Below, piece after piece: positions 10,811 through 49,381 of a DNA stretch of 64,000 nucleotides. Location of the stretch: the sequence record MF327009. One strand, 5' to 3'. The DNA comes from Shigella phage Sf25. Below the pieces are notes generated by a model that was not told the origin of the DNA, did not search any database, and saw nothing but the letters and a program-made list of their open reading frames with translations. Position 1 is the first letter of the stretch, and the number at the start of each line of letters is the position of its first letter. The translations under genes and the position numbers were made by a program.

Positions 10811-11226
10811 TCATATCATCGTTAGAAAGGAAAGTAAACAACTTTTTGAATTATTTTGCCCAGGGAGCCCAAGGCGGAGGGTCAAGATGGTATGAAGCTA
10901 GTTCTTCTAGAAGAGCATCTGGGGCTTCAATTCCATAATTCTGTAATACTATACGGTACTCTTTCTTATAATCACTAGAATCATTCTGGTTATTCGTAGA
11001 ATGATTATCTTCTAACATTCATATCATCGTTAGAAAGGAAAGTAAACAACTTTTTGAATTATTTTGCCCAGGGAGCCCAAGGCGGAGGGTCAAGATGGTA
11101 TGAAGCTAGTTCTTCTAGAAGAGCATCTGGGGCTTCAATTCCATAATTCTGTAATACTATACGGTACTCTTTCTTATAATCACTAGAATCATTCTGGTTA
11201 TTCGTAGAATGATTATCTTCTAACAT
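10811..11226. repeat. exact tandem duplication, 2 x 208 bp
   Basis: Unit tcatatcatcgttagaaagg...gattatcttctaacat occurs twice head-to-tail with no mismatch; covers codons 6-60 and 3' flank of the small ORF 11059..11241. Confidence 0.85.
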
Positions 11227-13201: not shown

Positions 13202-13447
13202 TTATTCACCAGTTACTTTCCACAAATCTTCATTTGCAGCAATCCATTCAGTACGTTGATTTTCTTCATATACTGTAGAATATGCTGCTTTTTCTGAAGG
13301 GAATATCTGGTAATGAGCGCCAGAAATTTTATGAACGTCAGAATAAAGAGGGAAAGCTACAGAAATTTCCTTTCCTTCAATTTTCTTATTTCCATCTAAT
13401 TTTTGCTCAAATGTTTTAATATTAACATAACCGCGAGTACTAGCCAT
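13202..13447 (-). CDS. soc: small outer capsid protein Soc
   Basis: 81-codon ORF MASTRGYVNIKTFEQKLDGNKKIEG..., near-identical to T4 Soc as recalled. Confidence 0.9.
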   Translation of the reverse strand: MASTRGYVNIKTFEQKLDGNKKIEGKEISVAFPLYSDVHKISGAHYQIFPSEKAAYSTVYEENQRTEWIAANEDLWKVTGE

Positions 13448-13530
13448 GTAATTCTCCTTTTATTTAAATTACATGATTATTTATAATAAATTCTCGCGGC
13501 TTTTAAGTCGTCGTTTATTTAAATGAGCTA

Positions 13531-14308
13531 TTAATAGCCTCGATCTTGACGAGCGAAGTTTTCAGCATTTTTCAGATAATAAAGTTTAAAGATTTCCTCA
13601 GCTGACATTCCAAGAGCAATGAATTTATTCATGAAAAAGTGAAATTGGTCAATCAGTTCAAATTTAATTTCAAGCTGATCTTCAGGAGATAAGTCTTGAA
13701 TTTTCTTGGATTGCATTTCAGAATAACGTTTCTTCCAAGGTTTCCATACAGCAGAAGCTTCTTTTTCACCATTACTCATACCACCAAGAGAAGTATATAG
13801 CTCGCGAGTTTCATCTGCGATATAATCGTCTTGGTTTCGCAACCAAGCAAGAACTTCTCCTGCAGTTTCAAGTGAATCAGGATGACGATTTGTTTCTGGT
13901 TTATCATTAGCCAAACGAATCTGTAAATGCCGCTGCATGTCAAATTTTCTTGGATTGCATTTCAGAATAACGTTTCTTCCAAGGTTTCCATACAGCAGAA
14001 GCTTCTTTTTCACCATTACTCATACCACCAAGAGAAGTATATAGCTCGCGAGTTTCATCTGCGATATAATCGTCTTGGTTTCGCAACCAAGCAAGAACTT
14101 CTCCTGCAGTTTCAAGTGAATCAGGATGACGATTTGTTTCTGGTTTATCATTAGCCAAACGAATCTGTAAATGCCGCTGCATGTCAAGCATAACCTGCAA
14201 TGGGTCAATACTGTGCATAATATACTCAGCATATGCACGATTTGCTTTATCAACACCTTCGATCAAATGAGCACATTCATTAAAGTGAGCCATTATTTTT
14301 CCTTTCAA
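13531..14308 (-). pseudogene. 56: dCTP pyrophosphatase gene 56 (MazG-like) disrupted by a 244-bp tandem duplication
   Basis: Two overlapping ORFs (13940..14308 and 13531..14016) share an identical 81-aa block; removing one repeat unit restores one ORF of about 171 aa at the gene 56 position between soc and dam. Confidence 0.7.
13699..14186. repeat. exact tandem duplication, 2 x 244 bp, inside gene 56
   Basis: Head-to-tail identical copies; unit length not a multiple of 3. Confidence 0.85.
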
Positions 14309-14353
14309 TTCATTAATAAGTTAAATAATTATATCATTTGAGTATGTAAGCAA

Positions 14354-15693
<1,340 letters not shown>

Positions 15694-15714
15694 TATATCA
15701 TCCTCAGCAATTTG

Positions 15715-15748
15715 TTTTATAATACCATAACAAGCTGAGAAAGTAAAC
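15715..15748 (-). promoter_or_regulatory. early-promoter-like site (GTTTAC -35, TGGTATTATAA -10) for the nuclease-like gene
   Basis: Minus strand reads GTTTAC-N17-TGGTATTATAA. Confidence 0.45.
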
Positions 15749-15786
15749 AAATTTATGATAAATATTAATTTAAAGGAGGACGACGC

Positions 15787-15987
15787 ATGGTACAAAAATT
15801 AATGGCACTTGTTAATGCCATCAAAGGTAATAAAAAACGTATAGCTTTTACTATTTCTGCTATGGTAGGAATTTTACTCTGGAACTTTATTTTATCACCT
15901 GTTGCAATTGCACATGGTATTAATATTCCAGTAGTTACTCTTGATACATTCGTAGATTTAGCATTTGCTTTAGTTGGGTTAATTTAA
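15787..15987 (+). CDS. small hydrophobic (two predicted TM) protein on the opposite strand
   Basis: Strong SD AAAGGAGGA 6 nt before ATG; fills the otherwise empty 290-bp gap between gene 61 and the nuclease-like gene. Confidence 0.3.
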   Translation: MVQKLMALVNAIKGNKKRIAFTISAMVGILLWNFILSPVAIAHGINIPVVTLDTFVDLAFALVGLI

Positions 15988-17012
15988 ATCTTAGCATATT
16001 TAGATAACCTCATTTTAGCCATCAACCCCTGGGCAATATTATTTTTCATATATTCCATAATTTGTTCAGGGGTTGCACCTTCCTTTCTAATCATATCATT
16101 AACATCTTTTGATTTCCAGGGAGATTTATCCCAAAACATAACTCTTTCTCCTGCATCAACTAATTTAGTCATTCGTTTGATAGTGTCAGGGTGACGAGGT
16201 TCATTATCTAAAACCCACACTCGTCTATCTTTAAATGGAACAACTTCTAGGTCTAATTGACCACCCGTAATAGCTATACCATTTTCAATAAAAAGTGAAT
16301 CTATAGGTCCTTCTAGAACATATACATCACCATCTTTAACTCGTTCAACACCGTAAATTTTTGTTGCCTCAGGATAAGCTTTGATGGTGATATACTTTTG
16401 TGGAGCATCTTTCTTTAATGCACGACCTTGAAAAGACTCAGCTTTTCCGTTAGCATTATAAATTGGAATAACAAGACGAGGCTCAGAAATTTCCTTTTTG
16501 TATGTTCCCGGTGCTATGCTATTAACTAATTTAGGCCATTCGGTTGTAAACCAAAGATATTTCCATTTATCCTTTGGAATACAACGAGCTTTTACATATT
16601 TTATAATTGGATGGTCTTCCGCCAGTTTATCTAATCTAACGCATGACGGAAGAGATTTAATTATTTTCTTCTCAGGCTGTTTAGGAAGTTCTTTAGGTTT
16701 TTCTACTGGACGACTTTTACCTTTTTCTTTTCTTATTTCAAAGATATACTCACGATATAAATCAGGTTCAAACTCCTTTAAATATATTCCGATTGGTGCA
16801 TGATAGTTACAGTTATAACAATGAATATTTCCTTCATTATTATCACCATAATACCATCCACGGGCTTTATTTTGGTCGGTTTTTGAATCTCCACAAACAG
16901 GGCATCTAAACCGCAACTTAAAGGTTGAACTATTATTTACTTGTGTAAATTTAGGTAAATGAGCTAATGCACGGTATGCAAACTCATTATCAATCCAAGG
17001 TATTGATGACAT
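15984..17012 (-). CDS. 61: DNA primase gp61, 342 aa
   Basis: N-terminal zinc ribbon CPVCGDSKTD...CYNCNYH, toprim-type primase; T4 gp61 length. Confidence 0.9.
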   Translation of the reverse strand: MSSIPWIDNEFAYRALAHLPKFTQVNNSSTFKLRFRCPVCGDSKTDQNKARGWYYGDNNEGNIHCYNCNYHAPIGIYLKEFEPDLYREYIFEIRKEKGKSRPVEKPKELPKQPEKKIIKSLPSCVRLDKLAEDHPIIKYVKARCIPKDKWKYLWFTTEWPKLVNSIAPGTYKKEISEPRLVIPIYNANGKAESFQGRALKKDAPQKYITIKAYPEATKIYGVERVKDGDVYVLEGPIDSLFIENGIAITGGQLDLEVVPFKDRRVWVLDNEPRHPDTIKRMTKLVDAGERVMFWDKSPWKSKDVNDMIRKEGATPEQIMEYMKNNIAQGLMAKMRLSKYAKI

Positions 17013-17014
17013 TT

Positions 17015-17179
17015 TTACTCTTCTTTTTCTTTAGATTCCTCTTTCTTCTTTTTAGGAATCTGTTCAGGACCTTTATTTACTACAGCACCTGACGTTGTTC
17101 CAGTAGAGATATTTTCAGGATTACCACCTGAATCTCCAGCGACCATATCTTCTTTAATAAATTCTTTATATGTTTTCAT
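17015..17179 (-). CDS. small protein (54 aa) with capsid-targeting-sequence-like N-terminus, 61.1 position
   Basis: Own translation MKTYKEFIKEDMVAGDSGGNPENISTG...; resembles the MKTYQEFIAE leader of internal proteins. Confidence 0.4.
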   Translation of the reverse strand: MKTYKEFIKEDMVAGDSGGNPENISTGTTSGAVVNKGPEQIPKKKKEESKEKEE

Positions 17180-17180
17180 A

Positions 17181-17807
17181 TTAACCTCTATTCATAAAAG
17201 CATTAAAAATTTGGTCATCAATAGAAACATTTACTTTAGACTGTTTTTCTGATGGTAATTCATATCCACATATCACAATTTTATGATCAATATCAAAATA
17301 CACAGAAGCAATATGATTAATGATATTTTCAGTGAAGTCTAAATCGACATCAATATCTTTTTGACCAAAGCCCAAAGGATAAATAATGCGAGTAATTCGA
17401 TTATCTTTAACAAAGATTCCACCGACATACTCTGTACTGCGTTTAAAGTCTACACGCCGACGAAATGAAAAATATTCAGGCTCTTTATGAGCTCGGCTCA
17501 TAGGACACAACGAATAACTAGAATAAGAGATGTCAAATCCTACGCCTTCAATATGAGCCAAAGTGTCATGATTAAACCAATTATAATCGTACGCCAAATC
17601 CATTAGATTATAATATGTAAAAGGCACCGGATTAACATCATTAGTCACAAGCATGTAATTAGCAACTGCTATAATTTCATTGTTTTTAACGAATACAAAC
17701 CGTGATTGATGCGAATGACCTGGACCCGCGTTTTCACGATTAATGATATAACACTGGGCACCTTTATATTTGTATGTATCTTTGCACTTGTGCATTTGAT
17801 AGAGCAT
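17181..17807 (-). CDS. hypothetical protein, 61.2 position
   Basis: 208 aa ORF at the position of T4 61.2. Confidence 0.5.
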   Translation of the reverse strand: MLYQMHKCKDTYKYKGAQCYIINRENAGPGHSHQSRFVFVKNNEIIAVANYMLVTNDVNPVPFTYYNLMDLAYDYNWFNHDTLAHIEGVGFDISYSSYSLCPMSRAHKEPEYFSFRRRVDFKRSTEYVGGIFVKDNRITRIIYPLGFGQKDIDVDLDFTENIINHIASVYFDIDHKIVICGYELPSEKQSKVNVSIDDQIFNAFMNRG

Positions 17808-18100
17808 TATTCACCTACCACTTCAGCGATGATATTTTTGTTATTAAAGTTTTTATCGCAATACAGAACATAATTATACTGCATTACACCACCAGACTTA
17901 AGCTGTTTTTGCACTTCAGCTTTCATTTCAGGACGATCGCGCTCAACAATATTCATAATATCCGCTTCAATTTGAGTTTCAACCTCAGTCTGATCAGCAG
18001 TCATAGACCATTCGCACAAATCTTTATCATAACCTGCCATAGCAGGCTGAGCAGCACAAGAAGCTAAAGCAAAAATTGTAGCAAAGATAAATTTTTTCAT
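17807..18100 (-). CDS. sp: periplasmic protein, spackle (sp) position
   Basis: 97 aa with N-terminal signal peptide (MKKFIFATIFALASCAAQPAMA); size and position match T4 Sp. Confidence 0.6.
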   Translation of the reverse strand: MKKFIFATIFALASCAAQPAMAGYDKDLCEWSMTADQTEVETQIEADIMNIVERDRPEMKAEVQKQLKSGGVMQYNYVLYCDKNFNNKNIIAEVVGE

Positions 18101-18160
18101 GATAATCTCCTCAGTAGTTTATGTTTATATAGTATCTCAATTTCCAACAAAAGTAAACAG

Positions 18161-18460
18161 TTATTTTAAAACTTCTGTGTAATCACATGTTACAAACTGT
18201 TTCTCTAGCTTGACGATTTTACGAAAGTATCTTTTACATTGACGAATCTGTCGCTTAGTAGGGCGCACAGCAAACTTAATAAATTCCACTCGACCAAATG
18301 GAGGGCTTTCTTCTGATGGAATATCTAACACCAATTCCCATGTATCTGCAATAAGTGCTTTGAATTGAGTATTTTTCCTAACGTTATACGGAGTAGGTTT
18401 AAATAAAACAATATGCATATTATCCTCGGCAATCCACTTCACATACTTTCTTGTCATCAA
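18161..18460 (-). CDS. hypothetical protein, 61.4 region
   Basis: ORF track; N-terminal part overlaps dmd and may be shorter. Confidence 0.4.
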   Translation of the reverse strand: MMTRKYVKWIAEDNMHIVLFKPTPYNVRKNTQFKALIADTWELVLDIPSEESPPFGRVEFIKFAVRPTKRQIRQCKRYFRKIVKLEKQFVTCDYTEVLK

Positions 18461-18602
18461 TGAAAGCTTTAACTAATGCTTTATTAACTTCAGCATACTG
18501 AGTAGTAGCCCATTGAACGTCATCTTTCATCATTGTGGTTTCTTTAGTAAACATGCTTTCATTCTTAAACCACCCCATAAAAACTACCTTTACCAATTCC
18601 AT
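18420..18602 (-). CDS. dmd: Dmd antitoxin-like protein (60 aa)
   Basis: 60-aa ORF MELVKVVFMGWFKNESMF... immediately downstream of gene 41, as T4 dmd (61.5). Confidence 0.75.
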   Translation of the reverse strand: MELVKVVFMGWFKNESMFTKETTMMKDDVQWATTQYAEVNKALVKAFIDDKKVCEVDCRG

Positions 18603-18629
18603 AACAATCTCCTCATTTAACCAACAAGA

Positions 18630-18661
18630 TTACTATACCATAGTCTTGTCAGCTTGTAAAC
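18630..18661 (-). promoter_or_regulatory. early-promoter-like site upstream of dmd
   Basis: Minus strand reads GTTTAC-N17-GTATAGTAAT. Confidence 0.45.
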
Positions 18662-20088
18662 TAAAATTTTAATTCATTTGCCAAAGCATCTAACTGAGCT
18701 CGAGTAGATTCATTTCTTTGATAGCGATTCTGCTCAGCCTGAATCTGTTGTGAACCTGCTACTTCGTTCACTTCAGTTGGAGTAGAATCTTGTTCAATTT
18801 CTACCCATTTCTGATTTCCTTTTTGAACACCCATCAAAAACTTATTCCATTTATTCTTATCGCCATATCGTGATTTGATTTGCTTAATGAGTTGTTGTTC
18901 AGCAGCTGCTAGCTCCTCGGTTTCAATGACCGCAAGCATAAAATCAGCTGTTGCTGGAAGACCAGCAGATTCTGCAATATCGCTCATGTTAACATCGGAA
19001 GAGTCCCAAGCTTGTTTACCAACCTGCGCTGCGGTCCAAAGAACAGTTTCGGTTTCAACAGCAAGAGCACGCAATTCCTCTGCAATAGCTTTAACAGTTG
19101 TGTAACTATTTTCTGAATAAACTCTAATGCGGCAAGATTTACAAATACCTAGATAGTCGACAATAATGATTGTTGGAACAAAATTCTTCTTGAGCTTCAA
19201 TTCATTCAAGAGAGACCTGAATGTATTAGCGTCTGCTCCACCAGTAGGATATTGCTTAACGATTAAACGACCGAGAGTAGATTTCTCACGCCATTTTTCC
19301 ATTTTTCCTTTATATTCGGCGTAAGAAATATGTCCATCATCAATATCGTCAAGAGAAACATCGAGCATGTTAGCATCAATACGTTTAGCACAGACTTCTT
19401 CTGCCATTTCCATGGAGATATAAAGAACGTTATGACCAAGCTGCAAATAATCTGCTGCTAATGAGCAAAGTCCTAATGATTTACCAACGTTAACGCCAGC
19501 CATTAAAACGTTCAGTGTTCCTGTTTCAGCTCCGCCTTTTGTAATTTTATTCAAAATACGAAGTTTAAATGGAACCTTACGAGCTTTATTCATATAAGAT
19601 AGCCAGCGTGCTTCGTAGTCATCCATCCAATCATGACCAACGTAGCTATCAAATGAAATTGATAATGCTTGGCGCATGATGTCAGGAATAGCACCTACAT
19701 CTGGCATTTTCTTATTTCGTTTTTCCGGAGGAAGCTCAGCATTAGTTTGAATTTCGATTATTTTAGACGTAGCATTAAACATCGCCCTTTGCTGAACATA
19801 TTTTTCTGTTTCTTTTACTAACCAACTATGGTCTTCCGGAGAATCAGCTAGTTTTGAAATAAGTGTTTTTACACCAGAATATTCTGTTTCAGTAAATGAA
19901 CTATTTTCTAATGCAACATTTAACGCATTAATAGATGGAACGCTATGATACTCATTAACATGAGATTTAATTAATTTGAATGTATTTTTAGCTGGACCAC
20001 TTTCAAAATATTCTGAATCCATATATGGCCAAACTTTTGAAAAATAAGCTTGATCAAATATGAGATGAGAAAGAATAATTTCTACCAC
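18661..20088 (-). CDS. 41: replicative DNA helicase gp41 (DnaB-like), 475 aa
   Basis: RecA-like core with Walker A AGVNVGKS; T4 gp41 length and position. Confidence 0.9.
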   Translation of the reverse strand: MVEIILSHLIFDQAYFSKVWPYMDSEYFESGPAKNTFKLIKSHVNEYHSVPSINALNVALENSSFTETEYSGVKTLISKLADSPEDHSWLVKETEKYVQQRAMFNATSKIIEIQTNAELPPEKRNKKMPDVGAIPDIMRQALSISFDSYVGHDWMDDYEARWLSYMNKARKVPFKLRILNKITKGGAETGTLNVLMAGVNVGKSLGLCSLAADYLQLGHNVLYISMEMAEEVCAKRIDANMLDVSLDDIDDGHISYAEYKGKMEKWREKSTLGRLIVKQYPTGGADANTFRSLLNELKLKKNFVPTIIIVDYLGICKSCRIRVYSENSYTTVKAIAEELRALAVETETVLWTAAQVGKQAWDSSDVNMSDIAESAGLPATADFMLAVIETEELAAAEQQLIKQIKSRYGDKNKWNKFLMGVQKGNQKWVEIEQDSTPTEVNEVAGSQQIQAEQNRYQRNESTRAQLDALANELKF

Positions 20089-20097
20089 ACTTACTCC

Positions 20098-20454
20098 TTA
20101 AAAGAATTTAAATTTTTTCTTTGACCTTTTATTAAATGCATCTTGCAGTTGCATTGTAATACATTTTTCTACATGAGGAGCTAACTCAGCTTTTCTTTCT
20201 TGGTCAAGAACAGCAAAGTCCATTACAACCTTTCCATCAACCCAATCCAGTTTAGTTACATACACTATATGTGTAGAACCATCTTCTAGTTTAATGACAA
20301 TCTCCTGGATAACATTTTCCATAGCGGATTTAATTATCTTAAGAGACTCATTAAAAAGACGTTCTTTTCTTTCTTTTTCCCCCTCCGAAGAGGGGGATTC
20401 ATCGATAATTTCTAAATCTAAATCATCTTTACTCATTAAATTCTTCCATATCAC
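20098..20454 (-). CDS. 40: gp40-position protein
   Basis: Position between uvsX and 41; acidic N-terminus; contains a strong GC hairpin. Confidence 0.5.
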   Translation of the reverse strand: MIWKNLMSKDDLDLEIIDESPSSEGEKERKERLFNESLKIIKSAMENVIQEIVIKLEDGSTHIVYVTKLDWVDGKVVMDFAVLDQERKAELAPHVEKCITMQLQDAFNKRSKKKFKFF

Positions 20455-21610
20455 TTAACTGCTCGAGGTCAGTTTCTAAATCAGCTGCTGATTTACTTTT
20501 ACTTTCTGGAGATTTAAATTTTTCAACCTTTGAGTTAATCAATTCATCAACTTCAGCTTCAACAATTTCATTACTATCAATAGCACCTAACTGATAAGCA
20601 CGTTTAATAGCATCTCGGAATGGCTGATGCTTAAATAAAGGACCCCAGAATGTAGTGCAGTTGGTATCTTTTGCACGCCAAGATTTTTCTTCGCGAATCA
20701 TCTCACCGGTTTCTTCGTCAAGAAATTCACGAGCATACCAGCCATTTTTAGGTTTTACCACAAATCCTAATTCAAGAGCCATATCTAACAATCCAGAATA
20801 AGGATCGATGCCACCGTCAAATTTAACATCAATAAAGAATTTACTTTTTTCTTTAACGGTACGAGATTTTTCTACATTTAGAACAAATTGATACCCCTGA
20901 AGATCAGAACCATCTTTAATCTGGCGCTTACCGATAATGAATACAGTATCAGCCGAATACATTACGCCTGTACCACCTGTCATCACGGTTTTACTAAACA
21001 TTTCAATTGTTTCAATTGTATGGTTAACCGCAACACATGGAATATTTTTAATGCTAAAGTAAGGAGTAACAATACGGAATAATGACTTCAGTGATTTAGC
21101 ACGAGTCATATCTGCCACAGATTTTTCATTCAAGGCATCTTCAGTTTCTTTCTTAGAAGCCATATTACCGATTGAGTCGATGAATACAATAACTTTTTCA
21201 CCGCGCTCAATAGCTTCAAGCTGATTCACCATATCAATTTTTAGCTGTTCAACTGACTGAATCGGCGTATGAATTACTCGTTCTGGGTCAACCCCCATGG
21301 ATCGCAAATAAGCTGGAGTAATACCAAATTCGCTATCATAGAATAGACAAACCGCGTCAGGATATTTGTTCAAATATGCCGCAACCATAGTCAAAGACAT
21401 ATTTGATTTAAAGTGTTTAGAAGGCCCTGCGAAAATAGTTAAACCAGACTGCATACCGCCATCAATCGCACCAGAAATAGCAATATTAAGCATTGGAATT
21501 TTTGTACGAATTACATCCTTTTCATTAAAGAATTTAGATGTAGTCAGTTCAGCAGTCATTTTAGAAGTGGAAGCTTTAATCAAACGGGATTTTAAATCTG
21601 CAATAGACAT
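20429..21610 (-). CDS. uvsX: UvsX recombinase (RecA-like), 393 aa
   Basis: RecA fold with Walker A GPSKHFKS; T4 UvsX-like N-terminus MSIADLKSRLIKASTSKMTAELT. Confidence 0.9.
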   Translation of the reverse strand: MSIADLKSRLIKASTSKMTAELTTSKFFNEKDVIRTKIPMLNIAISGAIDGGMQSGLTIFAGPSKHFKSNMSLTMVAAYLNKYPDAVCLFYDSEFGITPAYLRSMGVDPERVIHTPIQSVEQLKIDMVNQLEAIERGEKVIVFIDSIGNMASKKETEDALNEKSVADMTRAKSLKSLFRIVTPYFSIKNIPCVAVNHTIETIEMFSKTVMTGGTGVMYSADTVFIIGKRQIKDGSDLQGYQFVLNVEKSRTVKEKSKFFIDVKFDGGIDPYSGLLDMALELGFVVKPKNGWYAREFLDEETGEMIREEKSWRAKDTNCTTFWGPLFKHQPFRDAIKRAYQLGAIDSNEIVEAEVDELINSKVEKFKSPESKSKSAADLETDLEQLSDMEEFNE

Positions 21611-21687
21611 TCATTTTTTCCATAGGCATCATTATATTTTCCTCACTGGTTAAAGATAGAGTAATTATAACACAATAAATTTAGGCA

Positions 21688-22536
21688 TTAATCAACTGCT
21701 ATTGGATGAATAGCATTAAACTTATGAAATGCTTCTGATTTTTCTTTACGTGAAACGCACATGCGAAGAACCTTTAATGGTTCGTCTTCTTCACCCAACG
21801 ATTTTCGTTTTTCAATATTAGAAGTTTTCCAACGAGCTTGCTCTGGAAACTCTCTATTGATTTGCTCAAGCGCTCTATTATGTTTAGAATTACTACGAAT
21901 TGAACTGCACCCGCCAGGAGCTTGTGCTTTTCCAGATACAACCAGATATTTGAACAAGGCCAAATGCGGATAACCTTGATTAATTAAATTGAGAAATGCA
22001 TACATATCTTCGCACAAATCAATTTTTCCATACCCAATTTGTTCTGTCGTAAGTTTTCCAAGGTCATACCATGTATTCGTGAATCCATATGAATTTTCAC
22101 GATAATTACCCCAAGATGAAGTAATTTTAAAAATTGGTAGGCGAGCATGACCATGATAATACCCGCAATCCATGGCATCCTCAACGTATTGAATCAATTC
22201 ATAGAACTGTTCACGGGTTAATTGATTGACTTTATCTACACAACGACGGTCATCTCTTTTTCGCATTGAACTCATACGAATAGTAGTATCATCGTCAATC
22301 ATCCAGATTCGTTGACCTGCATACATATCAGTAATTGCTTTACGAGTACCGGCAATTCCGTTTACATCATCAGGAATAGTTATAATTTTAGCTCTAGACC
22401 CATAAGCGTCATAATAAGCTTTTTCTTCATGTTCACGCACTACAATATGGGGTTCATAATCAGTCGGAAACATATCAAGGGCAGAAACTGCCCCGACACG
22501 CTGATAACTTGGAATTACGAATTGAATCATTTCCAC
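21688..22536 (-). CDS. GT-A type glycosyltransferase at the beta-gt locus (282 aa)
   Basis: IWMIDDDT motif typical of GT-A folds; replaces the 351-aa T4 beta-gt between uvsX and 42, consistent with T2/T6-type glucosylation. Confidence 0.55.
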   Translation of the reverse strand: MEMIQFVIPSYQRVGAVSALDMFPTDYEPHIVVREHEEKAYYDAYGSRAKIITIPDDVNGIAGTRKAITDMYAGQRIWMIDDDTTIRMSSMRKRDDRRCVDKVNQLTREQFYELIQYVEDAMDCGYYHGHARLPIFKITSSWGNYRENSYGFTNTWYDLGKLTTEQIGYGKIDLCEDMYAFLNLINQGYPHLALFKYLVVSGKAQAPGGCSSIRSNSKHNRALEQINREFPEQARWKTSNIEKRKSLGEEDEPLKVLRMCVSRKEKSEAFHKFNAIHPIAVD

Positions 22537-23381
22537 TCACCGTTATAATCTTTTTTCACAATATGAGTTTCGCCAGTATTCCACCAATGATCAACCAAGT
22601 AAAAATGACGAGAATATACATGAAGACTTCCAACATTCCATATAATAGAACCTGCTTTATACTGACGAGTTGAATCGCCGGCATTCAAATCAGATACTAA
22701 TTTATCTAATACGTATTTTTGCCATGCATAATCATTACGGAATCCGAAGACCACGTCATTTGAGCGCATGCTTACTACTGCATTGACTTTCTTATCACGA
22801 ATCAGGTACTGTACTGTATTAGTACACATGAAATCTGACATACCATCTTTATTGTAGTCAAATTGCATGGATGGACGAGTCATGCTTACTACTGCATTGA
22901 CTTTCTTATCACGAATCAGGTACTGTACTGTATTAGTACACATGAAATCTGACATACCATCTTTATTGTAGTCAAATTGCATGGATGGACGAGTATAAAT
23001 CATGATACCACGTCGAGAATCAGGATTTTGACCAAGTTCAGCTAAACACATATCATACTGGGCATAGTTATCTTCTGACCAAATAGCCCAACCATAATTC
23101 GAGTTAATTTCGCCTTTAGAAGATGCTACCTGCTGCCAAATCTTTGGTGTTTCGCCTGGAATATCTTTGACAAACAGACTTTGAGACTTGTACCATTCAA
23201 GTTCACGCTGAATGTATTCATCATTAAGAGCGCCAAAAATAAAGGGTTCATCTGCTACAAATGATGCGCCAATAATTTCAATAGTTTTAACACCGGTTTT
23301 ATCAACTACGAAATCTTTTTCTTTTAATGCAAGCCCCAAATGAAGACGGATTTCTTCAACTGTCATAAAGTCACTAATCAT
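22527..23381 (-). CDS. 42: dCMP hydroxymethylase gp42 carrying an in-frame 38-aa tandem duplication (284 aa)
   Basis: Thymidylate-synthase-like fold; peptide VNAVVSMTRPSMQFDYNKDGMSDFMCTNTVQYLIRDKK occurs twice. Confidence 0.85.
   Translation of the reverse strand: MISDFMTVEEIRLHLGLALKEKDFVVDKTGVKTIEIIGASFVADEPFIFGALNDEYIQRELEWYKSQSLFVKDIPGETPKIWQQVASSKGEINSNYGWAIWSEDNYAQYDMCLAELGQNPDSRRGIMIYTRPSMQFDYNKDGMSDFMCTNTVQYLIRDKKVNAVVSMTRPSMQFDYNKDGMSDFMCTNTVQYLIRDKKVNAVVSMRSNDVVFGFRNDYAWQKYVLDKLVSDLNAGDSTRQYKAGSIIWNVGSLHVYSRHFYLVDHWWNTGETHIVKKDYNGEWK
22767..22994. repeat. exact tandem duplication, 2 x 114 bp, inside gene 42
   Basis: Identical head-to-tail copies, in frame. Confidence 0.85.
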
Positions 23382-24601: not shown

Positions 24602-27445
24602 TCAGCCAAACAGGAAGTCTAACGAAGCTTTTTCTTCATAGTCCATACCAGCCGATTCACACATGCCTGCAAGCGGTTTAACAAACGATTTTTGGAACAA
24701 AGTTGAGTAGTCAATCCAAGACAGTACGTCAGAACGAATTTCTTTTGGAAGTTCTGTACCCGACGGCCAAGCAATGCATTTGTCACCAAATGGATTTCCT
24801 TCACGCAATGGAAGAACCATTACTTTATTTCCATCCAAAATTGGAGCTACACCTAAACCGCTAACAGCTCGACGATAAGTTAGCACACCACGAATATGGA
24901 ACGGACATTTAAATCCTGGCCAACCTTTATCATCATATTTCGCTATATCGTTCGCAGTTTTTACTTCAGCAATAACTTTATAGTCAAGTTGACGATATTC
25001 TTTCTCGAAGTTCTTGTAATATTCTTGGACAGACTCTTCACCTTCCTGAAGAATACGACGAATACTTTCTTCGAGAGCTTCTTGGACCGCTTTAGGCGTT
25101 GAACTCTGCTGAGTTTCCATACCCATGATTTTTAGATGCGGTTCAGCAAATCGCTTATCTTCCATATCATATACGTTCAGAGCATAACGCTTTTTCGCTT
25201 TCCAAAATCCGCCAACGCCCTTTGAACCAAGTGGAGGGCAAGAAATAGCTTCACGGTCCATATGCATCAGATGCTCGCGGTTATTCATATAATCACATAA
25301 CTCACGATATGCAACATCAATCATAGGTTCCATCTTTTTCTTACCGAACTGATTCATGAATTCAACTAAATCGTTCTGCTCTTTGAATCGGTCAAGACCA
25401 ACTTTTTCAATAACTTTATCTACACAAACATATACCGAATCAGTATCACCTGCTGCAATGAAATCTTCGCCATTAGTTCCGCATACTTTATTCAGATATT
25501 CATTAATTTTACGAGCAATCCACTGAATACCAACTTGGCCGAAAATTGTGATAGCAGTAGCATTTCGCAAATCATAGTAACGGAAATGAATATTACCAAG
25601 AGCACCATAAAGACTGTTAATAAGAATTTTACGGTTCAGCTGATTTGTGTTAGCAAGTGTAGCTGCTTTTTCACACTCTTCGATCAAACTATTAAGAACA
25701 GATTCGGTGTAATTCGATAGTTCATTTAAGAAATCATCACTGAACTTAACATATCGTTCAACTTCTGGTTTAGTTGAGCAAGACCCTGCGCCTTTCATAA
25801 TAATCTTTTTAATAGCTTCGGCATTCATTTCTTCAGCGAACATTTTCTTTTTCCAATCTTTACGCTGGAAAAATACTTTAGCGATTTCCTTTGGAATGAT
25901 ACCTTCTTGATGCTTATCATACATCCATCCATTCGGAGAACAAGAATATTCATCACTCGGTTTAGGAGCTGTTCCTGCGATATATTCATGAATTGGATGA
26001 ACTTTAAACTGACCACGAATAGTCTCAGGACTAATGTTAACCTGACGAATAATGCTCGGATACAGAGACGTCAAGTCAAAACTCATAATATATCGACGAG
26101 CAATTGGTTTAGGTTCAAACACAAATGCACCCGGAAAACTCTGTTTAACGTGCGAACCTTGTTGAGGAATAACCTTATGTTCACCTTTCAATGAGTTAAA
26201 AATAATAGCATCCCAAGTTTTAATAGGACTCATTACACCGGAAAAAGGCATTTTAGCGTAATAAGACATACTTAAAACTAGATCGATAAACCCGCGAATT
26301 TTATCAATTGCTTGAACTGATTCTACGTCAATGATGTTATAACTAATGTATCGTTGATGATTAGTCTCACGAAGTTTATTAATAGGACCGTCGTATGGTA
26401 ATTTACCTTTTTTGGTTTCATGTTGAGCAACTGATTCCAAAGAGAATGACGGCAAATTAGTAAAAGCGAATTTCTTGTACAAATCTAAATAATCAAGAAT
26501 AGATACGCCATCAATAGAATAAATTTCTTTGCTGCCGTACATATTTTGAATTAGTTTGGATTTTACCCGACCGATTGGAGAGAAACGTTTCATACTGCGT
26601 TCGCCTAGAATCATTTTAACACGATTCATGATATATGGAACGTCAAACCCCTCAATATTCCAACCGGTAAAAATAGCAGGTCGTTTCTGTTCCCAGAGAT
26701 TGATATATTCCATGAGCATATCACGCTCATTATCGAATGGCATATAAATTACTCGGTCAAGAATTTCTTGAGGAACTTCATCACCACCTTCACAGTCAAG
26801 CTTAGCAGCTAACTTTGCATCCCATTTTGATACTGAACCGTACATTGAATTCAAAAGGTCGAAAACATAAAAACGATCGTCAATTGAATCGTAATGAGTG
26901 ATAGCATCAATTTCATATTCAGCTTTCATTGGGTCAGGAAATTTATCACCAGTAACCTCAATGTCACAGTTAGCTACACGAACACCGTACATTGAATTCA
27001 AAAGGTCGAAAACATAAAAACGATCGTCAATTGAATCGTAATGAGTGATAGCATCAATTTCATATTCAGCTTTCATTGGGTCAGGAAATTTATCACCAGT
27101 AACCTCAATGTCACAGTTAGCTACACGAACAAATTTTCGGTCATAAACAATTTCTGAACCATATGTATCACTGATATAAGCGAGTTTAAAATCGTTCATA
27201 CCGAGAGCTTCGAGACCGATGTCTTCCATTCGCTTCATCCAATCTCGAGCATCTTTCATTGATGGAAATTTTTGAGGAGCGCAGTTTTTACCATAGATGT
27301 CTTTGTACTTTGACTCTTCCTTACAATGCCTAAACATAGTTGGAAGATATTCTACTTCACGAGTACGTTCCTTTCCATTTTCATCAATATAACGTTCAAC
27401 AATATTATTTCCGACTGTTTCAATAGAGATATAAAATTCTTTCAT
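24602..27445 (-). CDS. 43: DNA polymerase gp43 (family B) carrying an in-frame 49-aa tandem duplication (947 aa)
   Basis: Exo I (CDIEVTG), DTDS polymerase motif, KKRY; T4 gp43 is 898 aa; duplicated block RVANCDIEVTG...LLNSMYG. Confidence 0.95.
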   Translation of the reverse strand: MKEFYISIETVGNNIVERYIDENGKERTREVEYLPTMFRHCKEESKYKDIYGKNCAPQKFPSMKDARDWMKRMEDIGLEALGMNDFKLAYISDTYGSEIVYDRKFVRVANCDIEVTGDKFPDPMKAEYEIDAITHYDSIDDRFYVFDLLNSMYGVRVANCDIEVTGDKFPDPMKAEYEIDAITHYDSIDDRFYVFDLLNSMYGSVSKWDAKLAAKLDCEGGDEVPQEILDRVIYMPFDNERDMLMEYINLWEQKRPAIFTGWNIEGFDVPYIMNRVKMILGERSMKRFSPIGRVKSKLIQNMYGSKEIYSIDGVSILDYLDLYKKFAFTNLPSFSLESVAQHETKKGKLPYDGPINKLRETNHQRYISYNIIDVESVQAIDKIRGFIDLVLSMSYYAKMPFSGVMSPIKTWDAIIFNSLKGEHKVIPQQGSHVKQSFPGAFVFEPKPIARRYIMSFDLTSLYPSIIRQVNISPETIRGQFKVHPIHEYIAGTAPKPSDEYSCSPNGWMYDKHQEGIIPKEIAKVFFQRKDWKKKMFAEEMNAEAIKKIIMKGAGSCSTKPEVERYVKFSDDFLNELSNYTESVLNSLIEECEKAATLANTNQLNRKILINSLYGALGNIHFRYYDLRNATAITIFGQVGIQWIARKINEYLNKVCGTNGEDFIAAGDTDSVYVCVDKVIEKVGLDRFKEQNDLVEFMNQFGKKKMEPMIDVAYRELCDYMNNREHLMHMDREAISCPPLGSKGVGGFWKAKKRYALNVYDMEDKRFAEPHLKIMGMETQQSSTPKAVQEALEESIRRILQEGEESVQEYYKNFEKEYRQLDYKVIAEVKTANDIAKYDDKGWPGFKCPFHIRGVLTYRRAVSGLGVAPILDGNKVMVLPLREGNPFGDKCIAWPSGTELPKEIRSDVLSWIDYSTLFQKSFVKPLAGMCESAGMDYEEKASLDFLFG
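26837..27130. repeat. exact tandem duplication, 2 x 147 bp, inside gene 43
   Basis: Identical copies, in frame; includes the Exo I motif. Confidence 0.85.
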
Positions 27446-28115: not shown

Positions 28116-28540
28116 TTTACCATTCCAATGCTAGTTTTTTGAGTTGTTTCTGTTCTTTTACGTTCTTAGTCACTTCTTTCAAAAAATCATATCTTCGACC
28201 AGTTTTGCCCATTTACCATATCTTTTACCACGAGGAACTGCAGCCATCAGATAATTAAAATGAGCTTCATCACTTAAGCCTGATCCAATTAAATTCATAG
28301 CATATACAGCTGGCATGCACTCTGGAAATTGTGATAATGCATTTTCAACCATGAATTTTGAATAATCTTTTTGAGCAATAGAGCATTTAGTTTTATTATT
28401 AATAGCTCCAATTATTTCAAAAAATTCATTTTCAGCTTTTTCTTTAAAAGAATCAGCAGCAGATTGGACAGCTGTCCAATCTTTTGAATACCAAGCAACT
28501 TGATGCTCGTTTAATTGAATATCATCTTCAAATAAGCTCA
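28116..28540 (-). pseudogene. 62: clamp-loader small subunit gene 62, frameshifted/truncated
   Basis: ORF ends prematurely (KLVEDMIF-stop, about 120 aa); conserved C-terminal peptide [23 protein letters not shown] is in the +1 frame ending at the regA start; about 46 codons missing versus T4 gp62 (187 aa). Confidence 0.6.
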
Positions 28541-28542
28541 TA

Positions 28543-29517
28543 TCACTTCCACTGCATTTCACATGCTAATTGAATGAAAAGATAAGCTAAATGTAATTCA
28601 GTGTTAGCTGCAATACCATGATACTGATTATTTTCACCAACAATTTCGTACATACGAATAATACTTTGCGGAGTTACACGTGAATAGATTTCTTCGGCAA
28701 GTTTACCCACGAACCACGAATAATCAGCTGCATATTTTGGTGCTAAAGCTCTGAGTTGTTTAACATCTTTATTTTTGAGAGACTCAAGAACATCATCAAT
28801 AGCACCACGATCGTTAGTAACCAGTGATAAAATACCAGCATCCAAAACACCTTTAGATGAATAACTATCGAGCTCACCAATAGTTTTACGAAAATCAGGA
28901 AAATTCTTTTTAACCAAAGCTGCTACAACTTTCATATCAGCTATAGCAATTCCTTCATGCTTGCAGATTTCAGTCAATCGACGAATCATCTGCTTCATCA
29001 TTTCAATTTTATCTTCATCGGTCGGTTGACCGAATGTAATAACTCGGCAGCGTGACTGGAGAGGTTTAATAATACCATCAATATTGTTAGCAGTAATAAT
29101 AATACTACAGTTTGAACTATAAGCTTCCATAAAGGAACGAAGATGTCGCTGAGACTCTGCTAACCCTGAGCGGTCAAATTCATCAATAACGATTACTTTT
29201 TGACGACCATCAAATGAAGCGGCGCTGGCAAAATTAGTCAAAGGACCACGAACGAAATCAATTTTACAATCTGACCCATTCACAAACATCATATCAGCAT
29301 TTACATCATGACACAATGCTTTCGCTACAGTTGTTTTACCTGTTCCTGGAGAAGGAGAATGAAGAATAATATGTGGAATTTTACCTTTACTTGTAATAGA
29401 TTTAAAGGTTTCTTTATCAAAGGCGGGAAGAATACATTCATCGATAGTAGATGGACGATATTTCTGTTCAAGAATGTGTTCTTTTTCATTTACGGTAATC
29501 ATAATTTCCTCATACAA
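28543..29517 (-). CDS. 44: clamp-loader ATPase gp44 (AAA+)
   Basis: Walker A GTGKTT, Walker B DEFD, SRC motif. Confidence 0.9.
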
Positions 29518-29533
29518 GTTTTAGTGTAAATTA

Positions 29534-29550
29534 TAAAGGGCCGAAGCCCT
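29534..29550 (-). terminator. hairpin between genes 45 and 44
   Basis: AGGGC-TTCG-GCCCT hairpin in the 36-bp intergenic region. Confidence 0.45.
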
Positions 29551-29553
29551 CTA

Positions 29554-30240: not shown

Positions 30241-30295
30241 GTAATTTCCTTCAATTCAAATGAGATTTAATTTTATAACTAATTTAATAAAGCAA

Positions 30296-30685: not shown

Positions 30686-30694
30686 AATACACCT

Positions 30695-30883
30695 TTAGTC
30701 ATAATAATCAGTAACAGTCCAAGCTTCATTTCTATTGGACATTATTTTTGTATATTCTGCTTTAAATGCATTCCTAAGCATAGATTCAGTAACTATATGC
30801 TCTTCATTAGAAAAATTATTTCTCAGAATATATCGTTTTATTTCAGGAAAAGTTAATAGATGCTGTCCAGTTGAATATTCCAT
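30695..30883 (-). CDS. hypothetical protein
   Basis: ORF track, 62 aa. Confidence 0.35.
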   Translation of the reverse strand: MEYSTGQHLLTFPEIKRYILRNNFSNEEHIVTESMLRNAFKAEYTKIMSNRNEAWTVTDYYD

Positions 30884-30938
30884 GTTTTTCCTCCATAGAG
30901 ATTATACTCTAATAAATTAAAGCATAATCTCTTATAAA

Positions 30939-39502: not shown

Positions 39503-39973
39503 TTAATCATGTTTCCACACCCCATCGGTATTTGACCAAAGTCGCTGATTATCTGATCCTCGCCACAGCTTTTTGGTCGGAAGATTTTTCTCATACTTCC
39601 CATCAATAATAACATCAACATATTTAAGCATTTCTAGTTGTTTAATATCTTCAAATTTATATCCTGTCCACAACCAAATGCTTTTATTGGGATAAAGATT
39701 TTTTACTGTTTGAACAATGCAATGAACAACATCTCGGTTATCAGGATAGAGAGGGTCTCCTCCAGTTATAGTTAATCCTTCTATATAATCATTATTCAAA
39801 CATTCAATTAATTGTTCTAGTGTTTCACCAGTGAATGGAACACCGTTTCTAGCGTTCCATGTTGATTTATTATAACACCCTTCGCATTTATGCAAACAAC
39901 CTGTAACGAAAAGAACGACCCTGCAACCAGGGCCATTCACAAAATCACAAGGATAAAATCTATCATAATTCAT
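39503..39973 (-). CDS. nrdG: anaerobic ribonucleotide reductase activating protein NrdG (radical SAM), 156 aa
   Basis: CxxxCxxC cluster (CLHKCEGC); stop/start overlap with nrdD. Confidence 0.85.
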   Translation of the reverse strand: MNYDRFYPCDFVNGPGCRVVLFVTGCLHKCEGCYNKSTWNARNGVPFTGETLEQLIECLNNDYIEGLTITGGDPLYPDNRDVVHCIVQTVKNLYPNKSIWLWTGYKFEDIKQLEMLKYVDVIIDGKYEKNLPTKKLWRGSDNQRLWSNTDGVWKHD

Positions 39974-40227
39974 TGATGCTTAACCCTATGCATGATTTCT
40001 TTATTTTTACCGAGATTAAATCCGCGCTCGTTAGGATTTCCCAAATAACCAACACCCTTCGCATTTATGCAAACAACCTGTAACGAAAAGAACGACCCTG
40101 CAACCAGGGCCATTCACAAAATCACAAGGATAAAATCTATCATAATTCATTGATGCTTAACCCTATGCATGATTTCTTTATTTTTACCGAGATTAAATCC
40201 GCGCTCGTTAGGATTTCCCAAATAACC
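39874..40227. repeat. exact tandem duplication, 2 x 177 bp, at the nrdD/nrdG junction
   Basis: Identical copies; second copy carries an orphan duplicate of the nrdG start region and a duplicate nrdD 3' end. Confidence 0.8.
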
Positions 40228-45632: not shown

Positions 45633-46934
45633 TTACTTAATTAACTGTAAAGCTTGTTCAAGACGATCAAGACGATTAACGGATTCTTCCCAAATCTTTT
45701 TAGCACTTTCATATTCTTTTTCTGCTTTATTTTTAATTTCTAAAGCTTCTTTATAAGCTTTTTCTAGTGCAATAACTTCTGGACGAATTTCTATTGGCTC
45801 AGGAGAATCATCGAGCCAATCCATCAATTCTTCAAGTGTGGTTTCTTCTTTAGGAGCATTCACAATTTCTTCACATTTCTTCTGATGAATTTCTTTATCT
45901 GTTAGTGAATAAGCACATTTCACTTCACGAAGACTAATTACAATTTTATATCCTTCCCATCCGCATATATTCTTAAAAGGATATGTATGAATATTTTCTA
46001 CTGTTTCCATACAAAGTAATGCAGTCTCTAACTGACGAGTTATAGTGCTAGCAATTGAGAAAAATTTATTAATATTCTTTTGGTTAGCGTTTGGTGTAAA
46101 AAATCCATAATTCACAAAAATAGCTACTTTATTTTCATCAAGCTCATATTCTAGTGAATAAGCACATTTCACTTCACGAAGACTAATTACAATTTTATAT
46201 CCTTCCCATCCGCATATATTCTTAAAAGGATATGTATGAATATTTTCTACTGTTTCCATACAAAGTAATGCAGTCTCTAACTGACGAGTTATAGTGCTAG
46301 CAATTGAGAAAAATTTATTAATATTCTTTTGGTTAGCGTTTGGTGTAAAAAATCCATAATTCACAAAAATAGCTACTTTATTTTCATCAAGCTCATATTC
46401 TTTTACGATAATCATATCAGAAGCCAAAGGATGAATTTGACGATAATCGCCATAACATAATTTAGAAGCTGATTTTAGAATTTGTCCTTTGAAAAGTCTG
46501 AAATTACTAATCCAACGACGAGTAAAAATATTCTCAGGGTCTTCTTTATTATTAAGATGATAAGAATTAACATCACCGAACCAATTATATCCTACTACAT
46601 CTTTGGTTCGTTTAATTTCTTTCCCAAAATTACCAAGAATATCCCGATTAACCAAATATGAAAGAAGACGAGACTCTTTAAAGGTTTTCTTGATATTATC
46701 TTTATCTACACGGCTAGAAATTTTACGAATTTCATGAATAAATTTAGTAGAAGAAACAATACTTGCATCAACACTATTGAGCCATTGATTGATAATGGAA
46801 AGAACGATATTTTGACCAAACATCGGTATAGCTTTATCATCAATAACGCTATTGAATGATTTGATATATTCGTTACGAGTCATATTAATCTCCTCAGTAG
46901 AAAGTAAGAACATTATACCACATCCTTGTGGCAA
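45633..46934 (-). CDS. hypothetical protein with C-terminal coiled coil, carrying an in-frame 83-aa tandem duplication
   Basis: Block EYELDENKVAIFVNYGFF...REVKCAYSL repeated twice; shares FRLFKGQILKSASKL-like motif with next ORF. Confidence 0.5.
   Translation of the reverse strand: MPQGCGIMFLLSTEEINMTRNEYIKSFNSVIDDKAIPMFGQNIVLSIINQWLNSVDASIVSSTKFIHEIRKISSRVDKDNIKKTFKESRLLSYLVNRDILGNFGKEIKRTKDVVGYNWFGDVNSYHLNNKEDPENIFTRRWISNFRLFKGQILKSASKLCYGDYRQIHPLASDMIIVKEYELDENKVAIFVNYGFFTPNANQKNINKFFSIASTITRQLETALLCMETVENIHTYPFKNICGWEGYKIVISLREVKCAYSLEYELDENKVAIFVNYGFFTPNANQKNINKFFSIASTITRQLETALLCMETVENIHTYPFKNICGWEGYKIVISLREVKCAYSLTDKEIHQKKCEEIVNAPKEETTLEELMDWLDDSPEPIEIRPEVIALEKAYKEALEIKNKAEKEYESAKKIWEESVNRLDRLEQALQLIK
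45903..46400. repeat. exact tandem duplication, 2 x 249 bp
   Basis: Identical head-to-tail copies, in frame. Confidence 0.85.
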
Positions 46935-46941: not shown

Positions 46942-48215
46942 TAGTTCAGTGCATTTAGTGCATTGTTCAGTTTAGAACGTTGCTTCGTGAGATTTTTGAC
47001 TTTTTCTTGTGCTTTTTCTAGCATCTTTTCAGCTTCTAACACTTCATTGGTCGCTTTAACGAGTTCATCATCTACTGCCTTAAGGGACTTCTCAATCGCA
47101 TCCGCGTGCCATTTTTCAACAGGTTTAAGACTCGGATTTTCAATAGGAAGAAAATTCACTTTATTGAATTTCCATGCATCTTTATTACCTGAACTATACA
47201 TCCAAAATTTAGGATCGTTTGATGAGTAATTGGATAAATTTAAATTTAAGTTATCTTGCACTTCTTGCTTTTTCTCTTGCGTGACTTCGTCCTTTCTCAA
47301 AAAATCGTATTTAAATGAAACGATCATATCAAGTTCATATGTTGTTGTGTCTAATTTAAATCGTTCGAAATGCTGTGAAATCTTAGACTGAATAGGAAGA
47401 AAATTCACTTTATTGAATTTCCATGCATCTTTATTACCTGAACTATACATCCAAAATTTAGGATCGTTTGATGAGTAATTGGATAAATTTAAATTTAAGT
47501 TATCTTGCACTTCTTGCTTTTTCTCTTGCGTGACTTCGTCCTTTCTCAAAAAATCGTATTTAAATGAAACGATCATATCAAGTTCATATGTTGTTGTGTC
47601 TAATTTAAATCGTTCGAAATGCTGTGAAATCTTAGACTGAACAGCAGCAACAACATCCATATACTTAAATGCTTCTGTCAACTGTGATTTAAGACATTCG
47701 CAAATTGAAAGAGAATTTTTTGTATTAGGTTTAAAGCTAATTCGTGCAGTTCTATTATTTTCTTTTAATGGTCTTACTTCCATCTGAAGAGTATAACCAT
47801 CAAATTTCAGGTTCTTTAAGTTAATATCAGAACCTTTTAATCGACTCGCAGTTGATAAAATTTGCTTTAATTGTCTACGGAATAGAGCAATAAATCTCCA
47901 TTCAATACGATAATGATTTGGATTGAAAAATCCAGATGATAAATCGACCTTACTTTGACCAACGCCTTGAACAAATAGAGGATTTTTATAATCAATAGTT
48001 TTACAGAAATCGGTTAGCTGCTCACGAGCAGTCATTTGTGTAATATACCCCGCTTTACTAAAATGACGTAACCATTCACTGCTATTCATATATTTAAAGT
48101 GAATATCACGATTAACTTTATCAGGGTCTAAATTATTTTGGCACAAAAATGTCATAACATCACGAGTATAGCTGGCATTACGAATCATATCTTCAATTTG
48201 AGAACGAGTTTTCAT
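46941..48215 (-). CDS. hypothetical protein with C-terminal coiled coil, carrying an in-frame 83-aa tandem duplication
   Basis: Block QSKISQHFERFKLDTTTYEL...KVNFLPI repeated twice. Confidence 0.5.
   Translation of the reverse strand: MKTRSQIEDMIRNASYTRDVMTFLCQNNLDPDKVNRDIHFKYMNSSEWLRHFSKAGYITQMTAREQLTDFCKTIDYKNPLFVQGVGQSKVDLSSGFFNPNHYRIEWRFIALFRRQLKQILSTASRLKGSDINLKNLKFDGYTLQMEVRPLKENNRTARISFKPNTKNSLSICECLKSQLTEAFKYMDVVAAVQSKISQHFERFKLDTTTYELDMIVSFKYDFLRKDEVTQEKKQEVQDNLNLNLSNYSSNDPKFWMYSSGNKDAWKFNKVNFLPIQSKISQHFERFKLDTTTYELDMIVSFKYDFLRKDEVTQEKKQEVQDNLNLNLSNYSSNDPKFWMYSSGNKDAWKFNKVNFLPIENPSLKPVEKWHADAIEKSLKAVDDELVKATNEVLEAEKMLEKAQEKVKNLTKQRSKLNNALNALN
47142..47639. repeat. exact tandem duplication, 2 x 249 bp
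   Basis: Identical head-to-tail copies, in frame. Confidence 0.85.
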
Positions 48216-48223
48216 GGTGTTCC

Positions 48224-49381
48224 TTAAGATTTAAGTAAATCAACAATTTTAATTAACTTTTCACGCTCGGATTTAGCTTTACTACTCAGTCCAGATAGTC
48301 TGAAAATTTCATCATCATATTGTTGAATAGAAATATTCAGCTCTTCAATCTGTTTATTAAAATAATCAATTTGTTCAGAATGTTTTTCGTTACTACGAAC
48401 TGGTACAGGTTTTGTAGGCAATTTAGTTGAACTGGATTCATCCGGGCGATAAATTAAAATACAACTTGAACCAATAGGGCATTTTGCACCAGATGAATAT
48501 TCTAATGTTCCAGCTTCTTTTAAAACTTCAAAAGCTAAACAGAGATGATGCCCCATATTAACATAATCTGTAGAGTGAGCTCTGATCAGCTCTTCAATCT
48601 GTTTATTAAAATAATCAATTTGTTCAGAATGTTTTTCGTTACTACGAACTGGTACAGGTTTTGTAGGCAATTTAGTTGAACTGGATTCATCCGGGCGATA
48701 AATTAAAATACAACTTGAACCAATAGGGCATTTTGCACCAGATGAATATTCTAATGTTCCAGCTTCTTTTAAAACTTCAAAAGCTAAACAGAGATGATGC
48801 CCCATATTAACATAATCTGTAGAGTGAGCTCTGATGTAATAATCATCTCCACGAATACTAAATTTAAAGCATTTAAGGTCTTCTGTATTATTGGTCTTAA
48901 AAATCATTTGTTTATCTAGACCTTTAGCTAATCGAGCGCCTAATGCTAATAATCGTCGTTGATTTTCCCACAAATCCGCAATCATTTGATCGAATGATAA
49001 TTTCGGCATTAGTCGACCATAAAGGTCATATCCTTTATTATAATTGCGAAGGATTTCACTCGCATTAATACGAGACAACGCTCCAATTTTATTAAGGGCT
49101 TTCATGATGCGATTAGATAAACCCATTCCAGACCCGTTTGTTCGTTGTAAATGTTTATCTAATCCAAACCCAATATCAACTTTAAATTTATCTAAAATTT
49201 CAGCATGAACATCTCTGTCAATAACATTCAAATCCAAAGTTTGGTTAAATCTATGAAAAAATTTATCTGGCTCTCCACGACGAAGTACAGTCCATTCATT
49301 CAATTTTTTATTAACTAAAGATTTAATTACTGCATTGACATTATTAATTACTACTGACATATTTTCCTCACTCAATTTCAA
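48224..49381 (-). CDS. hypothetical protein with C-terminal coiled coil, carrying an in-frame 83-aa tandem duplication
   Basis: Block IRAHSTDYVNMGHHLCLAFEV...NKQIEEL repeated twice. Confidence 0.5.
   Translation of the reverse strand: MKLSEENMSVVINNVNAVIKSLVNKKLNEWTVLRRGEPDKFFHRFNQTLDLNVIDRDVHAEILDKFKVDIGFGLDKHLQRTNGSGMGLSNRIMKALNKIGALSRINASEILRNYNKGYDLYGRLMPKLSFDQMIADLWENQRRLLALGARLAKGLDKQMIFKTNNTEDLKCFKFSIRGDDYYIRAHSTDYVNMGHHLCLAFEVLKEAGTLEYSSGAKCPIGSSCILIYRPDESSSTKLPTKPVPVRSNEKHSEQIDYFNKQIEELIRAHSTDYVNMGHHLCLAFEVLKEAGTLEYSSGAKCPIGSSCILIYRPDESSSTKLPTKPVPVRSNEKHSEQIDYFNKQIEELNISIQQYDDEIFRLSGLSSKAKSEREKLIKIVDLLKS
48337..48834. repeat. exact tandem duplication, 2 x 249 bp
   Basis: Identical head-to-tail copies, in frame. 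Confidence 0.85.

Follow-up and report, generated by a model that had tools for sequence, protein, structure and literature searches.

The 244-bp tandem duplication that splits gene 56 of Shigella phage Sf25 (sequence record MF327009) is most probably an artefact of assembly or finishing of the record and not a mutation of the phage, a reading to which sequence comparison leads us to give a probability of about 93%. It follows from five observations made in the window, by which we mean the whole stretch of 64,000 nucleotides that was analysed: eight duplications of the same style are present, none exceeds 249 bp, genes 42 and 43 are disrupted along with gene 56, the duplications are unique to this one record, and they tend to lie where the similarity of Sf25 to its closest relative switches. 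As biology, the split of gene 56 is almost certainly no real feature, the phage itself having a normal gene.

The split of gene 56 and the identity of its product

The gene 56 locus (13531..14293, minus strand) contains a unit of 244 bp that is present twice head to tail, copy 1 at 13699..13942 and copy 2, identical to it, at 13943..14186. TRF reported the repeat at 13699..14187, with a period of 244, 2.0 copies, 100% matches and 0 indels, while in a direct scan 245 consecutive positions were identical at offset 244: the 244-bp unit itself and one further base, 14187, which matches by chance. Both methods agree with the sequence-only reading, which had described the pair as free of mismatches. 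A perfect repeat of this length is beyond chance, so it is truly present in the deposited record. Its novel junction lies between 13942 and 13943, where CGCTGCATGTCA is followed by AATTTTCTTGG (the letters after the junction are also given as AATTTTCTTGGATTGC).

The duplication shifts the reading frame of gene 56, as had been proposed, and no uninterrupted frame exists in the record as deposited. Two minus-strand ORFs, 13940..14308 and 13531..14016, were found instead, and they share the block DMQRHLQ...SEMQSKKI, again as described before. The first encodes an N-terminal fragment of 117 aa (13940..14293, minus strand; deposited as AUV63439.1, 'dCTP pyrophosphatase'), which stops at a TGA made by the frameshift. 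The second encodes a C-terminal fragment of 135 aa (13531..13938, minus strand; deposited as AUV63438.1, 'hypothetical protein Sf25_gp158'), whose ATG lies 1 nt past that TGA, giving the arrangement TGA-C-ATG. Jointly the fragments span all 172 residues of the gene product with an overlap of 81 aa. The C-terminal fragment lacks residues 1-17 and the N-terminal fragment lacks residues 121-172, including the only stretch that matches Pfam (145-172); the regions missing from each are strongly conserved between T4 and Sf25. Removal of one 244-bp unit followed by re-translation restored a single ORF of 519 nt encoding a predicted dCTPase/dUTPase orthologue of 172 aa, where about 171 had been estimated.

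Aligned end to end with T4 gp56 (AF158101), the product of the collapsed ORF was identical at 120/172 positions (70%, E 6e-88; 172 versus 171 aa). It has the same sequence (100% identity) as gp56 in slur14, BYEP02 and further Tequatroviruses (cluster P0001), and AUV63166.1, the annotated gp56 of Sf24, is among the accessions of that cluster and identical to the collapsed protein. It also matched PHROG 173 ('nucleoside triphosphate pyrophosphohydrolase', E 2.7e-44). The earlier assignment of the collapsed ORF to gp56, between soc and dam, was therefore borne out by the 70% identity to the T4 protein, and we regard it as settled on homology that this is the orthologue of the T4 gp56 dCTPase, with a predicted hydrolase activity. 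Its description as 'MazG-like' is at best a loose one. There is a borderline match to PF08761 (dimeric dUTPase), for which full-length gp56 scored 21.6 bits, below the gathering threshold of 22.9; the C-terminal fragment alone scored 24.3 bits, above that threshold, with only residues 145-172 aligning. Against the description, Pfam at E <= 0.01 returned no family beyond PF08761 for gp56, and since this was the sole family reported there is no Pfam MazG match. Searches with gp56 gave no NCBIfam match and no PDB sequence match.

The position of gene 56 is conserved, between soc and dam and on the same strand as both. Its downstream neighbour is soc (small outer capsid protein; 13202..13447, minus strand), which carries PF16855 (Soc) in homologous loci, and its upstream neighbour is dam (DNA adenine methyltransferase; 14354..15133, minus strand). 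In Sf25 soc directly adjoins gene 56, across 13448-13530. This differs from T4, in which the homing endonuclease gene segF sits between the two genes, and from Sf24, in which they are separated by ~335 bp with two small ORFs; among T-even phages the soc-gene 56 gap is a hotspot of variable insertions. On the other side of dam from gene 56 there is an ORF of 220 aa (15133-15795, minus strand), whose Sf24 counterpart is annotated as a hypothetical protein of CATH superfamily 3.40.1350.10, and no counterpart was listed beside dam in the stretch of T4 that was viewed. Note also that the annotation of T4 places a replication origin, oriA, within the 5' end of gene 56 (T4 16763), which corresponds to about position 14270 of the window. 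The duplicated unit, ending at 14186, stops short of it.

Eight perfect duplications in 64 kb

Seven further perfect two-copy duplications, absent from the sequence-only reading, were found in the window. The eight have periods of 208, 244, 114, 147, 177, 249, 249 and 249 bp, and all of them show 100% identity, exactly 2.0 copies and 0 indels. No period above 249 bp appeared in a scan of periods up to 3000 bp across the window, and TRF detected no diverged tandem repeat across the same stretch. The longest period, 249 bp, is reached three times and fits reads of 250 nt. The distances between junctions range from 1.2 to 13 kb.

The consequences for the genes vary. The 2 x 208 bp repeat at 10811..11226 produces an extra partial copy of a ModA.2-like small ORF, and the 2 x 177 bp repeat at 39874..40227 lies on the boundary between the start of nrdG and the end of nrdD, leaving both ORFs intact with an extra piece between them. 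Three duplications of 2 x 249 bp lengthen NrdC.4 from 333 to 416 aa (45903..46400), NrdC.5 from 341 to 424 aa (47142..47639) and NrdC.6 from 295 to 378 aa (48337..48834). The remaining two fall in gene 42 and gene 43. In gene 42, encoding the dCMP hydroxymethylase, a 2 x 114 bp repeat (22767..22994) extends the product from 246 to 284 aa (AUV63453.1) by repeating 38 aa, a block that includes DFMCT with Cys148. In gene 43, encoding the DNA polymerase, a 2 x 147 bp repeat (26837..27130) extends the product from 898 to 947 aa (AUV63457.1) by repeating 49 aa, including the Exo I motif D112-I-E114. According to established T4 enzymology, Cys148 is the catalytic residue of the hydroxymethylase and D112/E114 belong to the polymerase Exo I motif. 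These two duplications leave no intact copy of either gene.

The eight units showed no similarity to one another and no common end motif, and a mobile element or shared repeat family was rejected for this lack of mutual similarity. Extra identity at the junctions amounted to 0-2 nt, with a mean of 0.75 compared to a chance expectation of ~0.78, so that the short homology at which duplications of the T4 type form was not seen at the eight junctions. The period is a multiple of 3 in 6/8 duplications (naive p ~0.02; ~0.10 if the three 249s are counted once), and such frame-preserving periods could also come from selection acting on real in-frame duplications.

As controls we used the genome of Sf24 (MF327008), the closest phage record (97.1% over 25 kb), and 14 independent homologous contigs. 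Over its full length of 168,112 bp the Sf24 genome contained one perfect tandem duplication, of 265 bp at 92090, and the 14 contigs, 170.7 kb in total, contained none. The combined controls thus comprise 339 kb with a single duplication, in the Sf24 record from the same study. By simple arithmetic, and assuming a uniform rate, the chance that 8/9 events fall in the window, which represents 16% of the sequence, is ~3e-6. The Sf24 duplication (92090-92619) lies in the interval from denB to denB.1, where one gene is broken up into two mutually similar ORFs, annotated gp121 and gp122, and the 265-bp unit is single-copy in all the relatives listed. It is probably an artefact of the same kind. The Sf24 record begins exactly at the end of a CDS, indicating that it was cut and re-joined (re-linearised) after assembly. 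The UvsW helicase of Sf24 (34755-36266 of L001, a piece of the Sf24 record) was annotated by the depositors as 'non-functional due to frameshift', possibly another sequence-quality problem in the records of this study.

Restriction to one record and similarity switches

All eight units are single-copy in the sister phage Sf24. A composite probe of the eight junctions, built with 18 nt from each side so that only a 28-mer spanning a junction can seed a match, found no match in 50,697 phage records, a collection in which MF327009 itself is not included. The 28-mer of the gene 56 junction was not found in IMG/VR nor in metagenome contigs, and in every phage record listed the two halves of this junction match ~245 bp apart, as they do where the unit is present once. 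The proteins gave the same picture. Among ~15 billion proteins, the five lengthened products occurred only as the exact deposited Sf25 proteins, each on one contig, and the fragments of 117 and 135 aa were likewise exact deposited proteins confined to a single contig of 168,573 bp, the Sf25 record (when gene positions were queried for the exact 117-aa ORF there was no match). The full-length DNA polymerases listed from a cluster of 436 members were all of 898 aa. Finally, a single 172-aa gene 56 was present in 14/14 independent contigs that carry the exact neighbouring proteins. Their identity to the divergent block next to gene 56 is only 90-97%; they are relatives with a single-copy gene 56 and not a re-assembly of Sf25.

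The comparison with Sf24 revealed a mosaic. Difference-free runs of at least 1 kb, up to 4.1 kb long, account for 29% of the bases of the window, and the remainder differs from Sf24 by ~5.7%; were the differences evenly spread, the longest run expected would be ~193 nt. Near-identical stretches of several kb lie at 14109-21712, 28231-37078, 42193-44521 and elsewhere. The duplications are enriched at switches between ~100% and ~95% identity to Sf24. That in gene 56 sits on such a switch: the 600 bp on its left contain 19 differences and the 1622 bp on its right none. Asymmetry of flank identity was greater for the eight duplications than for random positions (Mann-Whitney p 0.0013 with flanks of 400 bp, 0.0019 with 600 bp); rank tests were used here, a mean-based statistic being swamped by unaligned stretches. 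Several switch points carry no duplication, and the coincidence of unit edges with differences between Sf24 and Sf25 was not significant (p 0.12-0.15). The divergent blocks, compared with other sequenced phages, had a best match of ~97.4%, and at that value a chimera of two known genomes was not demonstrated. The mosaic could result from natural recombination between co-occurring phages or from a mixed or contaminated library. With one of eight such repeats, unique to a single record and placed at a switch point, the view of the gene 56 duplication as an allele of the phage did not hold.

Origin of the duplications and comparison with known systems

The arrangement can be accounted for by a fault in joining. 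We propose that the Sf25 data were assembled as a number of pieces, with end overlaps of at most the read length minus one, and that these pieces were ordered and then, as we infer, pasted end to end without trimming the overlaps. Each join would leave a perfect two-copy tandem repeat, and gene callers would then report a split gene (56) or lengthened ones (42, 43 and NrdC.4-6). A read length of ~250 nt would presumably lie behind the 249-bp limit, the maximum overlap between two reads being their length minus 1. It has been described that regions common to different genomes, and variation within a population, cause assemblers to break contigs there and leave shared ends, and that de Bruijn assemblers leave one fixed overlap, of maxK or maxK-1 (PMC10914622). 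Since the overlaps here vary from 114 to 249 bp, they argue against plain de Bruijn contig ends (fixed k or k-1) and suggest read-limited extension (overlap-layout assembly) or manual read-walking before the joining. In the phage itself gene 56 is most likely single and intact, with a product of 172 aa.

A more specific version, possible but in our judgement rather doubtful, holds that the library contained two related phages, one Sf24-like and one divergent, or that the reads were stitched using Sf24 as a reference, so that the record is chimeric and the duplications are the scars of its joints. This is a sub-variant of the assembly artefact and no alternative to it. The mosaic itself speaks for it, with 29% of the window in difference-free runs of 1 kb or more against ~5.7% difference in the rest, as do the location of duplications at switch points and an assembly in pieces of 1.2-13 kb, which is unusual for a clonal phage lysate. 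However, natural recombination of co-occurring T-even phages makes the same mosaic, several switch points are free of duplications, and the second parent is not nameable, since the divergent blocks reach at most ~97.4% identity to any other sequenced phage.

The remaining explanations accept the duplications as real. A genuine tandem duplication with gene 56 expressed as two overlapping fragments is very improbable. Termination-reinitiation could yield the pieces of 117 and 135 aa, which might perhaps complement each other for dCTPase activity: the TGA-C-ATG geometry is present, the depositors annotated both ORFs, the fragments cover the 172 residues between them with their 81-aa overlap, and 6/8 duplications of the window are in frame. 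Yet this would need eight independent, mutation-free events in 64 kb, three of them of exactly 249 bp and none seen in any relative examined; the essential genes 42 and 43 would be broken in their catalytic cores, and each gene 56 fragment is devoid of a strongly conserved region. In T4, homologous recombination removes tandem repeats quickly, and where an essential gene is crippled its revertants would outgrow the rest. Sf25 was isolated as a viable, plaque-forming phage, and the duplications are not compatible with such a phage, as genes 56, 42 and 43, essential in T4, are disrupted and denB is apparently intact. Fainter still is the chance that the duplications exist physically in the Sf25 stock, the split dCTPase being made by UGA-C-AUG reinitiation and the active-site repeats in the products of genes 42 and 43 being tolerated.

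It has also to be considered that the duplication is real and gene 56 null, the phage living with cytosine DNA in a denB- alc- background. In T4 the dCTPase keeps cytosine-containing DNA from being made (PMC6071114). For a T4 defective in gene 56, stable DNA requires a defect in denB as well, and plaques require a further mutation in alc, so a null allele is unexpected in a viable T-even phage, as the sequence-only reading had remarked; denB- alc- genotypes are nevertheless viable in the laboratory (PMC1635256). We consider this explanation next to negligible for Sf25. A protein identical to Sf24 DenB has the accession AUV63403.1, in the Sf25 numbering range, and the denB ORF is intact, with its full 185 aa in Sf24 and 99% identity to that of a relative. 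The ORFs for the hydroxymethylase and the DNA polymerase are open and full-length, the gene 42 repeat aside, the Sf24 annotation includes beta- and alpha-glucosyltransferase in the homologous stretch, and the other seven duplications would be left unexplained. The gene alc is outside the 64-kb window. As to the annotation of denB, the protein is given as 162 aa in Sf24 (1413-1970 of L002, another piece of the Sf24 record), identical to AUV63403.1, and as 185 aa in most relatives. A denB-defective background was rejected, the 162-aa annotation being only a choice of start codon in an open 185-aa ORF.

If the duplications arose by untrimmed joining, no fewer than eight spurious ones stand in 64 kb of MF327009, a matter of data quality and an error in a public record. 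Their products are already in protein databases, with UniRef entries of their own: the dCTPase in two pieces, a 'DNA polymerase' of 947 aa, a 'dCMP hydroxymethylase' of 284 aa and three NrdC.x proteins in lengthened form. Anyone scanning T-even phages for pseudogenes, split genes or duplicated domains will continue to pick up this record. When a single perfect tandem duplication is met, the record should be checked for others with a common size limit before it is called an allele.

Genuine tandem duplications of T4, such as those of the rII region and the gene 17/18 amplifications, are usually kilobase-scale, arise at short homologies and are unstable, and they usually retain a working copy of any essential gene. 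They resemble the Sf25 repeats in being head to tail in a T-even genome. Unlike them, the Sf25 repeats measure at most 249 bp, have no more microhomology than chance would give and interrupt essential genes of which no intact copy is left. The T4dC phages (gene 56- denB- alc-, usually gene 42-) are the only known context in T4 in which a gene 56 null is viable (PMC1635256). These are laboratory constructs, whereas in Sf25 denB appears intact and the rest of the window gives no sign of a life with cytosine DNA. Compared with T4 gp56, the collapsed Sf25 ORF is a full-length orthologue and the deposited version is split in two. A further likeness is with untrimmed contig-end overlaps left in finished assemblies. 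The fixed size of de Bruijn overlaps distinguishes them from those of Sf25, which vary between 114 and 249 bp with three at the upper limit. Common to both are identical copies, exactly two, head to tail, many in one record and none in its relatives, with the breaks at switches between shared and variant sequence.
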